A DNA stretch of 64,000 nt from Escherichia phage FEC14, in sequence record MG383452. One strand, 5' to 3'. Below the pieces are notes generated by a model. The model searched no databases and was not told where the DNA came from. It worked only from the letters and a program-made list of their open reading frames with translations. A program made the position numbers and the translations under genes. Of this stretch, positions 10,253 to 34,655 are shown piece after piece (position 1 is the first letter of the stretch; every line of letters begins with the position of its first letter).

Positions 10253-11047
10253 TTATTTGCCGACGTTTAGCATTTTACTTGAGCCTGAACCATCAACAAT
10301 CAGAGTACATTTCCCGCTGTTGGCGCAAGATTGCAACACCATGTTATATTCGTGTTGTAAATATTCAGGTGTCAGAGATGTCGTCAGTTTCTGATTCGCC
10401 CTGGCTTCTTGGTCTCGAATTTCAACGTTCTTTCTTGCTGTATCCAAACGTTTGTCGGCCATGACATTATCACGGATAGATTGCTCAATCGAAGGATCTG
10501 TCAGCGCCTTTTTGACCAACACGCGTGTGATTGTGAACATGCCAGGTGCAGCTGTTTCTAATTGCTGCTGGGTGCGTTCCTTGATCATCTTTTCTAACTC
10601 AGCCCGTTGGGTGTGAATTGTCATAGAATCCAAAGAGGAAACGGCGTCCATCGTTGAGGATGCTGCGGCGGTTTTAACCAGGTTGAATCCCACCGCTATC
10701 GTGCCGTCACCGAGTTCAGCGCTCTGACCTGCAAATTTGGTATGGAACCAAGGAACCTTCGCGACGTTCGGTGTGTAATAAACGTCCACATCCAGATCTT
10801 CCAAGGTCAGGTTGTCTTTGGCCTTTGGCGTCATTTTCGTCAGACTCACAACGGCTTCTTTGGTCGTGTAAACATCCACGCTTGAAACAAAGCTGGTGTA
10901 GATCCCCGCTGTTACAGGGTTCATGTCTACTTCACCCCATTGGGTGCGAACGCCGACATTACCTTCATCGATAACGCCACCACAACCAGAAAGTAGACTT
11001 GCAGCCAGAACCATAATTGCACCAAACACCAATTTCTTGAACATCAA
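10253..11047 (-). CDS. lipoprotein (264 aa), possible SPFH/band-7-like
   Basis: Signal peptide with lipobox LLSGC read in translation; downstream fold assignment is a guess. Confidence 0.55.
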   Translation of the reverse strand: MMFKKLVFGAIMVLAASLLSGCGGVIDEGNVGVRTQWGEVDMNPVTAGIYTSFVSSVDVYTTKEAVVSLTKMTPKAKDNLTLEDLDVDVYYTPNVAKVPWFHTKFAGQSAELGDGTIAVGFNLVKTAAASSTMDAVSSLDSMTIHTQRAELEKMIKERTQQQLETAAPGMFTITRVLVKKALTDPSIEQSIRDNVMADKRLDTARKNVEIRDQEARANQKLTTSLTPEYLQHEYNMVLQSCANSGKCTLIVDGSGSSKMLNVGK

Positions 11048-11262
11048 TGTACCCCTTCAAAAATGTAGATATATGCACCCAATGTGAGTGCAGTTATTGT
11101 AACCGAAGAAATCAGCAGTAGGAAAGTTACTCTCACCCGTTTGCGCCAACGTTTACTTCGGTAGATTTTAGTCTCTTTCAAGTATTTGAAAAAGAAAAAT
11201 AAAATGAATGTTGAAATTACGAATATGAACAGATAACGGATTAACCCGATCATATTTCCCAC
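11044..11262 (-). CDS. small membrane protein (72 aa, two predicted TM segments)
   Basis: Two hydrophobic stretches separated by a basic loop (KRWRKRVR); overlaps lipoprotein start. Confidence 0.4.
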   Translation of the reverse strand: MGNMIGLIRYLFIFVISTFILFFFFKYLKETKIYRSKRWRKRVRVTFLLLISSVTITALTLGAYIYIFEGVH

Positions 11263-11570
11263 CCTGTGCTACGCAGATGATCAAAATAATCGTTGAGTTC
11301 GTCAATATCTTCGATATCAACCCAACGATCATCCAGACCCATATCATTTAGATCTTCTTCAGTCAGATCATGTTGGTATATTTGAACGCCGGAAGCATTA
11401 CAATAATCCGGCTTGATGTTATTGTTATACTGAAACAGGTCGTAATCAGCCAGAGTATTCTTCAGGCGCTGCGCTTCTTCAAATGTTGGAACCTCAACAT
11501 GAAAAGCGATCCCAGGAACCTGGGGAATATGCCAAACGCGAAATTTAAGTTCAAACGGTTTATTCGACAT
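11250..11570 (-). CDS. hypothetical acidic protein (106 aa)
   Basis: Minus-strand ORF in co-oriented array. Confidence 0.4.
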   Translation of the reverse strand: MSNKPFELKFRVWHIPQVPGIAFHVEVPTFEEAQRLKNTLADYDLFQYNNNIKPDYCNASGVQIYQHDLTEEDLNDMGLDDRWVDIEDIDELNDYFDHLRSTGWEI

Positions 11571-11889
11571 GGGGTTCTCCCTGAGACAGTATGGTTTTCA
11601 TCTGTTCACGCGTGATAATTGTTTCAACAAGATTCTCGTCAATCATCATTTCGTTTAACAGTTCACAACCCAGCACGTGTGGTCGCGCCATATACGGCAT
11701 CGTGTTGAGTTTTTCTTCTATGTCAAGAACGCGCTTGACAGTCAGACCCATAGAAGAAAAGGGAACAGGATAAAAGAATGAAATGATCTGATTATCCATC
11801 CCGTTTGAAAATCTTACCAACAATACATCACACCATACGCCGGACATATTACACCTCCAGACGGTTACAATGAGAAAGCGCGTTATCAA
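11560..11889 (-). CDS. hypothetical protein (109 aa)
   Basis: Minus-strand ORF in co-oriented array. Confidence 0.35.
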   Translation of the reverse strand: MITRFLIVTVWRCNMSGVWCDVLLVRFSNGMDNQIISFFYPVPFSSMGLTVKRVLDIEEKLNTMPYMARPHVLGCELLNEMMIDENLVETIITREQMKTILSQGEPHVE

Positions 11890-12538
11890 TCTGTTCCCGA
11901 GACAGATATTCCAACGGGTTGCGAGAATACGCGTCTAACAGCAGCAGTTGGAGCACAGCGCGATTACGAGTTTCACTCTCCATCATGATACCGTTCATAT
12001 GTGGTGAACGGGCTGTCCATACAACATACTGACCTAAATCGTCGTTGGCAGTCAGGCTAATGCGAAACTGATTACACAATTTGTCGATTAACGCATAATC
12101 ATATGTGAACGTCCCTTCAGTTTTCCAGCTTGATTTCTTCACCTGAAGAGCTTCACCACGAGTTCTGAATTCTAACGTCACTCCATGAGTTTCATTGTCG
12201 AAATGAACAACTCTCTGAGTTTCATTTTTCAGAGTCCGGTTCATATTATGTACGAAGAAACGGGCGTCGATCTCCCTATTGCTCATGGAATTAAAATCGA
12301 TCGGCCAAAAACGAGCGCGCATAATCGCGCCTTCTGGCAATACAATTAGTCCATTTTCACGGGAGACATAGCAAAGACGTTTAACTGCAGGGTCAGGATG
12401 TTCCACACAATAAACGGAAATTCCAGTGGGAAGGATAGCGTGGGCGACAACACCAGATCTTTCAAAATATAAATTACCCTGGTCAGCCCCGATGATAATA
12501 CGGCTCTTGTTGTTCATAATACGGCTCTTGTTGTTCAT
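11849..12538 (-). CDS. hypothetical protein (229 aa) with duplicated N-terminus MNNKSRI-MNNKSRI
   Basis: ORF begins inside a perfect 21-bp tandem duplication that includes the ATG. Confidence 0.5.
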   Translation of the reverse strand: MNNKSRIMNNKSRIIIGADQGNLYFERSGVVAHAILPTGISVYCVEHPDPAVKRLCYVSRENGLIVLPEGAIMRARFWPIDFNSMSNREIDARFFVHNMNRTLKNETQRVVHFDNETHGVTLEFRTRGEALQVKKSSWKTEGTFTYDYALIDKLCNQFRISLTANDDLGQYVVWTARSPHMNGIMMESETRNRAVLQLLLLDAYSRNPLEYLSREQIDNALSHCNRLEV

Positions 12539-12541
12539 AAT
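12495..12541. repeat. perfect 21-bp tandem duplication (2 copies plus partial) spanning the start codon of the 11849..12538 gene
   Basis: ATAATACGGCTCTTGTTGTTC repeated head-to-tail, read directly. Confidence 0.7.
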
Positions 12542-12560
12542 ATAGATCTCTCAAATAAAA

Positions 12561-12581
12561 GGCGGTTTAATAATAACCGCC
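12561..12581 (-). terminator. hairpin GGCGGTT-loop-AACCGCC followed by U-run on minus strand
   Basis: 3' of the 12596..13390 ORF. Confidence 0.45.
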
Positions 12582-12595
12582 CTAATGTTATTGAA

Positions 12596-13390
12596 TTATT
12601 TTATATCACCGACATACATGTTCAAACTTTCATCCCATTCTAAACGAACACGAATAGTGCCAGAATCGTTTGGGAAAGACAATTTGTCGCACATATGACG
12701 ATTTGCATATGTTCCGCTCTTATTAACAGGATAATCTTTACCTTCACCGATTGCGAATCGTTTGAAGTTCCGACTCACCATCATATTGATGTTAGGCCAC
12801 TGCAATTGTTCCCGTAGGGTTTTGCACAATATAATCTTCCCATTAGACCGGAAAGACACGAATAAATCATTTGGTGAAGAAAATCGCCTTTCTTGCGGGC
12901 ATAATTGCCTGATTGAAATAAATTCAGATTCTTCTTTATTCTCAACTGGAGACTTCACGGGTTCTTCTTTTCGTTTTTCTGCATATTGCTCAACAGCCTT
13001 TTGGCTGACAGGCGGCAGATCAATAGAAGGGGAGATGACTGCGGGCTTAACGACTGGTGAAGTACGAGCAGCAACAAGTTTTTCCTGAGCTTCCAGAATT
13101 CTCTCTTGGCGAGATTTTGGTCGAGTATCAACCTTGGAGCTGAAATCACAAACCGTAACCCAATCACCCTGATCATTGCGCTTGGCAACCAGAGTCAGTT
13201 TATAGATGATGCCCTGCAGCTTGCTTTCGCGCATAGTGTCTGCGAACCAGAAAGCACAACCCTGCTCGAACTTTTCAGCGAAGATGACGCGTCCGTCTTC
13301 GTGAATCAGAATGACCTTTGCTTTGTTGGGCGCGAACATCTTATTCTTTTCAATGATCGATTCGGCGATCTTTTTGGTAATAATCATCAC
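12596..13390 (-). CDS. hypothetical protein (264 aa)
   Basis: Long minus-strand ORF; no motif recognised. Confidence 0.5.
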   Translation of the reverse strand: MMIITKKIAESIIEKNKMFAPNKAKVILIHEDGRVIFAEKFEQGCAFWFADTMRESKLQGIIYKLTLVAKRNDQGDWVTVCDFSSKVDTRPKSRQERILEAQEKLVAARTSPVVKPAVISPSIDLPPVSQKAVEQYAEKRKEEPVKSPVENKEESEFISIRQLCPQERRFSSPNDLFVSFRSNGKIILCKTLREQLQWPNINMMVSRNFKRFAIGEGKDYPVNKSGTYANRHMCDKLSFPNDSGTIRVRLEWDESLNMYVGDIK

Positions 13391-30507: not shown

Positions 30508-31281
30508 TTAGCGATCCGCCCAGATTCCTTTCTGTTCTTTACCCATTTTGTGATACAGACGGACACGATCAAACATTTTAGAAATAACGTCTTTGCGATC
30601 GAATTCGATTATGGTGGGAACAAGGGCATTTTCGTTGGATATAATATTGATTAAACGCTCTATCTTGACATTAAACATTTGTTGAAACATGACTGAGTAT
30701 AGACACAATTGAATACTATAATCTTCTATCATGCTTCGAGTTTTTAGGGTGTTGGATGTTTTGAAATCGATTATGCTTGGAATTCCTTCGTAAACCCCGA
30801 TGAGGTCAACACGACCAGCAAGACCCAGGACTTCGCTATATAATGGAATCTCTTGTGCATATATCTTGCTCATTTTGTTAAGGTAGGGGAAAACCTGTTT
30901 GAACATAAACACGTATTCCCCTGCAGCTTCCAGAACTTCCTTCATTGGTCTGTTTTTGAGATACAACTCACAAGCCAAATGAAGTTTTTCCCCACGGTCT
31001 GCGCAACGATGTGTTTCTATATCAGCAGCTTCATGTCCCAACTTGTCCCGCCAGGCTTCTAACCATGTGTGGTCACCAGTACGCCCTAACATGGTCGTCA
31101 CTGAAGTTAGTTTGACTCCAGTGGGGGAAACATAGTGACGACCATTTTCGGTAGTTACGCAAGTCAGTTCCTTAAACGGCAAGGAATATTGCTGAAATGT
31201 GTGATGACGATTTTCAAAGTCATTAAGTTTGCGCAAAGCCTGTAGAGAAACCATTACATCCCATCCAAATATTTTCGCCAA
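30508..31281 (-). CDS. putative PD-(D/E)xK nuclease
   Basis: GRVDLIGVYEGIPSIIDFKTS fits D...(D/E)xK catalytic motif; located between uvsW and uvsY. Confidence 0.45.
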   Translation of the reverse strand: MAKIFGWDVMVSLQALRKLNDFENRHHTFQQYSLPFKELTCVTTENGRHYVSPTGVKLTSVTTMLGRTGDHTWLEAWRDKLGHEAADIETHRCADRGEKLHLACELYLKNRPMKEVLEAAGEYVFMFKQVFPYLNKMSKIYAQEIPLYSEVLGLAGRVDLIGVYEGIPSIIDFKTSNTLKTRSMIEDYSIQLCLYSVMFQQMFNVKIERLINIISNENALVPTIIEFDRKDVISKMFDRVRLYHKMGKEQKGIWADR

Positions 31282-31709
31282 TCAATAGCATTCTTCACTT
31301 CATATCCGAGTTTGTTCAAACGATCTAAGCAACTTTCGATGAACTTGACTTTGGCTTTCTGCTCTTGAAGCATGCTAGACAATTCGATATAATCATCATC
31401 TGCTTTTACCCATACGTCTATATCAGATTTCAGGGGGCGAACTTTTAATGGACGTTCAACATAAACGTTGGGTGGCAATTCCCCTGCATAAAATCGGCGT
31501 AAATAGAGATCTATTTGGCGGAATTTGCCAGTTAGATACTCCAGATATCTTCCTTCACGAATATAATGGCGTTGCACAGTCATCCACGAACGACCAATTT
31601 TCAATGACATTTGGTCTAAGTTCATGTCTTCAGGATTTACCGAAATAAGAGGCTCCAATTCTGCCATTATATCTTCGGTTTTCATCGTTTCAAGTTTTGT
31701 TTCGCTCAT
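31254..31709 (-). CDS. uvsY: recombination mediator UvsY
   Basis: Size and C-terminal half (YLRRFYAGE...) resemble T4 UvsY (RLDYYSGRGDG...); neighbourhood with uvsW. Confidence 0.55.
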   Translation of the reverse strand: MSETKLETMKTEDIMAELEPLISVNPEDMNLDQMSLKIGRSWMTVQRHYIREGRYLEYLTGKFRQIDLYLRRFYAGELPPNVYVERPLKVRPLKSDIDVWVKADDDYIELSSMLQEQKAKVKFIESCLDRLNKLGYEVKNAIDWRKYLDGM

Positions 31710-31762
31710 GATTTATTCCCTGCTGTTTCAACTCTCTGTATTATAACTCTCTGTATTATAAC

Positions 31763-32260
31763 TTATTGTTTATCAATTTCGCGGGTGACGCGAGTCGGAG
31801 TCAGTTTCAAATATTTGAACGTGACAGTCGTGACCAGTTGGGGAACCGCAGCATCCACATCCACCAATACGTTGTCCAAAGCTGTGGGACGGGCTTCTTC
31901 CAACAACAATTGTAGACCAACAGGGCGATTCATGTTATTAAGAAGGTCGATGGTGATGTCACGGCTAACAGCTAAATCAGATCCAGCATTGGACGCAATC
32001 CAATTGTAAATCTGTTCCCAGTTGTACCAACTCTCATCGATAACGAACGTAAATACGATGGGGTCATACGTGAGACGTTCTGAAGGTATGGAGTTGAGCA
32101 CATCGCCAGGGGATGGACCCTCGATACCTTCAGAATACACTCCAGGAATACTGAAGTCATGTATTGAACGAGTAAGCAATATCAGGTCTCCGATAGTTAA
32201 GCGCCATTTATCGGAAGCCGCGAAATTAGGATTTTCGTTTTTGAATTGTACACCTGTCAT
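31763..32260 (-). CDS. hypothetical protein (165 aa)
   Basis: Minus-strand ORF. Confidence 0.45.
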   Translation of the reverse strand: MTGVQFKNENPNFAASDKWRLTIGDLILLTRSIHDFSIPGVYSEGIEGPSPGDVLNSIPSERLTYDPIVFTFVIDESWYNWEQIYNWIASNAGSDLAVSRDITIDLLNNMNRPVGLQLLLEEARPTALDNVLVDVDAAVPQLVTTVTFKYLKLTPTRVTREIDKQ

Positions 32261-34337: not shown

Positions 34338-34655
34338 TCACAGCGCCCCAAGATTGCTGATGACGTACAGGCTGCACAAGGGAGTCCCTGATGAACGAGG
34401 TTCTATGCTCATTCCCGAGAGGCGGATCAGTTCCAGCAAACCGTCGGTGGTCTGATACGCACGAGTCGAACCGTTTGGACGATATAGCTCCAACTCGGTT
34501 CGCCCTTCCTTTAATGCGTTACGGATGCGAGTGAACACACTGTGGGCTTGATATTTTTGACGTAGAATATCTAAACGGGTGATGAGATTTCGACTGCGGC
34601 TGCGACGTCCCGTTGACGAAACAACTAATTTCATTTCTGGTGTTTTACAAGCCAT
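34338..34655 (-). CDS. hypothetical protein (105 aa)
   Basis: Minus-strand ORF. Confidence 0.35.
   Translation of the reverse strand: MACKTPEMKLVVSSTGRRSRSRNLITRLDILRQKYQAHSVFTRIRNALKEGRTELELYRPNGSTRAYQTTDGLLELIRLSGMSIEPRSSGTPLCSLYVISNLGAL

Follow-up and report, generated by a model that had tools for sequence, protein, structure and literature searches.

A private 21-bp tandem duplication over a start codon in a Kuttervirus genome, probably produced by replication slippage

RESULTS

A perfect tandem repeat at the start of a gene without known function

The window (the whole stretch of DNA that was analysed, 64,000 nucleotides of Escherichia phage FEC14, MG383452) belongs to a Kuttervirus (Ackermannviridae, Cba120/PhaxI-like). 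The region matches ~170 Kuttervirus genomes, including Cba120, PhaxI, Det7 and SFP10, and the records closest to the window are ~96–97% identical to it over 25 kb, which makes it a distinct Kuttervirus isolate. The window also carries a T4-type set of replication and recombination genes (homologues of gp44/62, gp45, UvsW, UvsY and gp46/47). The repeat described here lies at the beginning of a gene for a 229-aa protein, and all the genes around it are on the minus strand. The neighbours of this gene encode an SPFH/Band-7 lipoprotein, a gp17-type superinfection-exclusion protein and a DUF7425 protein; further neighbours encode a 264-aa protein without an assigned function and an Rz-like spanin. 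The features of the locus are as follows:

11849–12538, minus strand: gene for the 229-aa protein, homologue of Cba120 orf130 (222 aa, 'conserved hypothetical phage protein')
12495–12515, minus strand: copy A of the 21-bp unit (plus-strand letters ATAATACGGCTCTTGTTGTTC), the downstream copy on the minus strand
12515–12517, minus strand: ATG2, which with the content of copy A gives codons 8–14 (native codons 1–7, MNNKSRI)
12516–12536, minus strand: copy B of the 21-bp unit, the upstream copy on the minus strand
12536–12538, minus strand: ATG1, which copy B gives together with 12537–12538, along with the extra codons 1–7 (MNNKSRI)
12537–12542, minus strand: partial third copy, ATAATA in plus-strand letters, the microhomology hexamer
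12559–12583, minus strand: intrinsic-terminator-like hairpin (9 pairs, then a T-run) between the orf131 homologue and the 229-aa gene
12596–13390: upstream gene, homologue of orf131

Tandem Repeats Finder called 12495–12542 as a perfect tandem repeat of the unit ATAATACGGCTCTTGTTGTTC (period 21, 2.3 copies, 100% matches, 0 indels), and the raw letters of the window agree with this call. Read on the minus strand, the repeat consists of TATT-ATG-AACAACAAGAGCCG twice, followed by TATTAT. A reading made from the sequence alone (hereafter the sequence-only reading) had described a perfect 21-bp tandem duplication covering a start codon and ending at 12541; the copies are indeed 100% identical, and the repeat ends one base later, at 12542. 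The same reading had the ORF begin with a doubled MNNKSRI, which is correct: the minus-strand ORF 11849–12538 begins MNNKSRIMNNKSRIIIGADQ, and the protein starts MNNKSRI-MNNKSRI-IIGADQ. At period 21 the window matches itself over a run of 27 bases, whereas in 300 versions of the window simulated with a first-order Markov model the longest run at periods between 7 and 60 was 15.

The duplication leaves the hairpin at 12559–12583 intact. This strong terminator-like structure is only ~20 nt upstream of the gene start, with no obvious promoter in between, and putative options for the transcription of the 229-aa gene are read-through or a phage promoter that was not recognised.

The duplication is private to this genome among the records and collections searched

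The sequence-only reading had proposed a comparison with related genomes. Between positions 11443 and 14135 the window and Cba120 do not differ by a single substitution in 2,672 aligned bases, and the sole difference is a 21-base insertion, placed at 12495–12515. Outside this block the sequence is several percent divergent from Cba120. The duplication is thus younger than a block that is itself free of accumulated substitutions. The window is thus mosaic here, with a 2.7-kb block that is 100% identical to Cba120 save for the duplication and with flanks (10850–11442 and from 14136 onward) that diverge by several percent, a pattern that suggests a recent recombinational exchange among Kutterviruses.

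Other relatives gave the same picture. When a 161-base query spanning the repeat was used, the best-ranked phage records aligned over 139–140 bases at an identity of at most 87%, and none of the 164 related phage records reached 99% identity (a two-copy record would rank first). The top-ranked records listed for a 64-base query matched as two overlapping pieces on 43 bases, i.e. 64 minus 21. Hence Cba120 and the top-ranked phage records carry a single copy, and the two-copy form was found nowhere in these searches. A junction-specific 30-mer had no match in IMG/VR, in metagenome contigs or in bacterial and archaeal genome contigs; as a positive control for the IMG/VR scan, the single-copy 43-mer was present in four Kuttervirus contigs. 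An exact look-up of the 229-aa protein returned no record of an identical protein. The relatives, IMG/VR, and the metagenome and genome contigs were thus all negative, and we therefore regard the duplication, on the sequences compared, as private to the window genome among the records and collections searched.

These data also settle whether two adjacent 21-mers might resemble each other by chance, without any duplication event. Because the matched run exceeds that of every simulated window and because the relatives are short by exactly one unit, this reading is refuted.

The ancestral sequence carries a direct repeat at the edges of the duplicated unit

The single-copy ancestral 43-mer, conserved in Cba120 and the other relatives, reads CCCCGATG-ATAATA-CGGCTCTTGTTGTTC-ATAATA-TAGATCTC. 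It contains a 6-bp direct repeat, ATAATA, on both sides of a 15-nt core, at a spacing of exactly 21 bp, and the duplicated unit is the segment bounded by this repeat. Such a 6-bp microhomology at the edges of the unit is the signature of slipped-strand mispairing. Precedents for events between short direct repeats are the Streisinger slippage model and the deletions and duplications with short repeats at their ends that have been described in lacI of E. coli and rII of T4. Here, a nascent strand ending in the second ATAATA would slip back, pair with the template at the first ATAATA and copy the 21 bases a second time.

The locus resembles microhomology-bounded slippage duplications in several respects: the window repeat consists of perfect head-to-tail copies, the ancestral unit is bounded by a direct repeat of 6 bp spaced by 21 bp, close relatives have a single-copy ancestor shorter by exactly one unit, the phage has a replication and recombination gene set of T4 type, and the other sizeable indels in the genome belong to the same class. 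Compared with other slippage duplications there is mechanistically nothing distinctive about this one, and its only peculiarity is that the unit contains a start codon and that a complete native ORF is kept downstream. The suggestion of the sequence-only reading that this is a very recent slippage event is supported, given that the insertion is the sole difference from Cba120 in 2.7 kb, that it occurs in none of the relatives or collections searched, and that the 6-bp direct repeat pre-existed. We consider it highly likely that this is a real and evolutionarily very young tandem duplication, which arose while the phage DNA was being replicated, either by slipped-strand mispairing or by an equivalent unequal exchange mediated by microhomology.

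Other tandem changes in this genome and in this gene

Over 48 kb aligned with Cba120, the real indels were mostly tandem (+21 bp at 12495, +15 bp at 31730 and −6 bp near 34600), and the only non-tandem ones were one of 5 bp and one of 3 bp. The 15-bp insertion is a second perfect tandem duplication (15 bp × 2.3, 31730–31763, GTTATAATACAGAGA twice on the minus strand) and sits in the spacer between a homologue of the gp3 tail-completion protein (31763–32260) and the UvsY homologue (31254–31709). It is not present in Cba120, nor in any of the matches listed from 215 records (81 bases aligned of a 96-base query, none above 95% identity). Its unit contains a TATAAT-like element. We considered whether the unit could be a recurring promoter motif and rejected this, as a search of the window that allowed up to 2 mismatches found it nowhere else. 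The third change, at ~34600 (Cba120 L003:35320, the orf175 homologue), is a tandem difference of the 6-bp unit CTGCGA in a coding region, of which Cba120 has one copy more.

The gene with the 21-bp duplication has also been expanded elsewhere. In Salmonella phage Se_EM4 (LR811968.1, L002:1187-1287) the same gene contains an independent, perfect and in-frame 30-bp × 3.4 expansion; the Se_EM4 protein has 242 aa, with the peptide NETQRVVHFD present three times. The 30-bp unit is bounded by a 10-bp direct repeat, TGAGTTTCAT, and it is present once-plus-flank in the window at 12186–12225. From these sequences, the orf130-family gene appears to have been struck by microhomology slippage in two different phages. 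In the literature we found no report of tandem duplications in Kuttervirus, and the one paper found that names both CBA120 and orf130 appears to characterise a different phage.

Two start codons, one native ribosome-binding context

The duplicated unit covers the gene from −4 to +17, and its 21 bases are a multiple of three. As a consequence, the upstream copy forms seven in-frame leader codons and the downstream copy preserves the whole native ORF with its own ATG. The sequence-only reading had spoken of two equivalent ATG and RBS-like contexts. The first half of this holds, as the context of the two ATGs is identical from −4 to +23; the second does not, as the Shine-Dalgarno region (−5 to −15) is outside the repeat and was not duplicated, so that GAGAG precedes one ATG and AAGAG the other. 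The elements upstream of the two ATGs are:

12551–12553, minus strand: in-frame TGA, 15 nt upstream of ATG1, read from the sequence
12548–12552, minus strand: GAGAG, a weak SD-like element that precedes ATG1 by 9 nt and gives the native ribosome-binding context, which was not duplicated
12525–12529, minus strand: AAGAG, a weak SD-like element that by chance lies 7 nt upstream of ATG2, within coding sequence of the upstream copy

The calculated anti-SD pairing was −2.9 kcal/mol for ATG1 and −2.1 kcal/mol for ATG2, compared to medians of −5.8 kcal/mol for 47 long ORFs of the window and −1.9 kcal/mol for random ATGs. Initiation at ATG1, in the native upstream context, would yield the native protein with a disordered N-terminal extension of seven residues, and initiation at ATG2 would yield exactly the native protein.

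In the AlphaFold2 model of the 229-aa protein (pLDDT 86, pTM 0.84), residues 1–10 have a pLDDT <50 and the first strand comprises residues 13–17. The duplicated heptapeptide is therefore predicted, from this model, to be a disordered tail before the first β-strand. Since the protein core is intact from either start, the mutation is likely to be neutral or close to it, and has just not been lost yet. The N-terminus is short throughout the family, and the extension could also be mildly deleterious.

On the plus strand the unit contains CATAAT, and we considered an antisense promoter. Two weak promoter-like sites (9/12; 12492–12520 and 12513–12541) were of background quality, and the genes annotated nearby are all on the minus strand; this candidate was set aside.

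The protein belongs to a small phage family

The protein matches the profile of phrog_5426 (function unknown) with an E-value of 6.3e-121, residues 8–227 aligning to positions 1–224 of 225, so that profile position 1 falls on residue 8, the second Met. Outside the insertion it is 98–99% identical to its Kuttervirus homologues. Among 1.8 billion representatives, the orf130/phrog_5426 family accounts for 11 clusters at 50% identity, and the relatives that are named in the sources come from Ackermannviridae or from other phages of enterobacteria. D19, R76, E89, R93 and R109 (window numbering) are among the invariant residues. All the family members start 5–6 residues before an invariant I-x-G-x-D motif; compared with Cba120 orf130 and the rest of the family, the window protein has seven extra N-terminal residues.

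A Pfam search of the protein gave only a sub-threshold match to Pallilysin, and searches of NCBIfam and of PDB sequence profiles gave no match. Foldseek found no meaningful neighbour in the PDB (best matches with a TM of 0.16–0.23 and E-values of at least 2.5e-3), and a search of BFVD returned only the protein's own relatives. The confident model without a meaningful PDB neighbour may thus represent an undescribed fold. The N-terminal IIIGADQG, taken as a first catalytic strand, gave the idea of a RuvC/RNase H-like nuclease; this was rejected, as RNase H domains had E-values of only ~0.2–0.4 in Foldseek and there was no match to Pfam, NCBIfam or PDB sequences. A homologue in Salmonella phage FrontPhageNews (MW021754.1, L008:310-978) is labelled 'putative ImpD'. 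This label looks unfounded, as none of the Pfam, PHROG, NCBIfam, PDB sequence and fold searches backs a named family.

DISCUSSION

Artefact, selected change or slippage

An apparent duplication that is found in a single record could also be a product of sequencing, amplification or assembly, or a minority variant that was promoted to the consensus, in which case the phage population would carry one copy. The absence of the two-copy allele from every other record and collection searched fits this possibility, and the presence of two perfect duplications, both private to this genome, could suggest an origin specific to one preparation or pipeline. However, the unit is edged by a pre-existing 6-bp direct repeat, as expected of biological slippage, the window genome contains a second event of this class, and an analogous microhomology-bounded expansion is found in Se_EM4, which was sequenced independently. 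An untrimmed overlap of contig ends would, by our estimate, need a coincidence of ~1 in 1,000 or less. Moreover, a feature of 48 bases is shorter than a read, and a graph assembler cannot create junction k-mers without read support. The assembly is also not of generally low quality: when 48 kb are compared with Cba120, no CDS shows a net frameshift, and the 1–2 nt indels seen in coding sequences are paired alignment wobbles that add up to zero. An artefact, of assembly or of another kind, is therefore unlikely. A functional change favoured by selection, acting through altered expression (a second start or mRNA structure) or through the N-terminal extension, e.g. as an escape from host defence, seems to us still quite improbable. 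It would draw on the SD-like AAGAG that ATG2 gains at a good spacing (7 nt), on the occurrence of two independent in-frame tandem expansions in one gene of 0.67 kb in different phages (a count that may lie within expectation), and on the 15-bp duplication, which likewise covers a signal-like element, its TATAAT-containing unit lying upstream of the uvsY homologue. Yet the duplication is conserved in no relative, both SD pairings are weak and near the background of random ATGs, the added peptide lies outside the conserved core and comes out as disordered in the model, and a microhomology-rich, AT-rich sequence accounts for the location without selection.

The sequence-only reading had also offered a regulatory device with alternative starts. 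In-frame tandem alternative starts that give two isoforms are a general phenomenon in bacteria and phages, and the locus resembles such genes in that its two ATGs are separated by 21 nt and both are preceded, at a workable spacing, by a weak SD-like element. In established dual-start genes, both starts are generally conserved among relatives; here, in contrast, the second ATG at 21-nt spacing was seen only in the window genome, the homologues start once, and the predicted products differ by a disordered heptapeptide. The two-copy form is in none of the ~164 records, the family N-terminus lies 5–6 residues before IxGxD, and the SD is weak and was not duplicated. Because nothing is conserved, we find no support for a regulatory device. 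The most far-reaching version, in which the orf130-family gene is a recurrent and possibly selected target of in-frame tandem expansions (21-bp × 2 here, 30-bp × 3 in Se_EM4), we regard as very improbable. If it were true, selection could act via dosage from the second start or via a changed surface seen by a host defence system, and the duplicated start codon would represent an adaptive allele with two starts, observed just after it arose.

What the duplication means for this genome

With slippage as the preferred explanation, the mutation is an ordinary one of a well-known kind, in a gene without known function, and not a conserved regulatory device. It has little importance beyond annotation, where the gene is best described as the native 222-aa gene with a private N-terminal duplication of seven codons, and annotators should infer no novel dual-start mechanism from it. 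It offers a neat case, from nature, of slippage mediated by microhomology in a genome of the Ackermannviridae, and it shows how a duplication that covers the start codon is intrinsically non-destructive. Finally, the 21-bp and 15-bp insertions could act as strain-specific markers for this phage.
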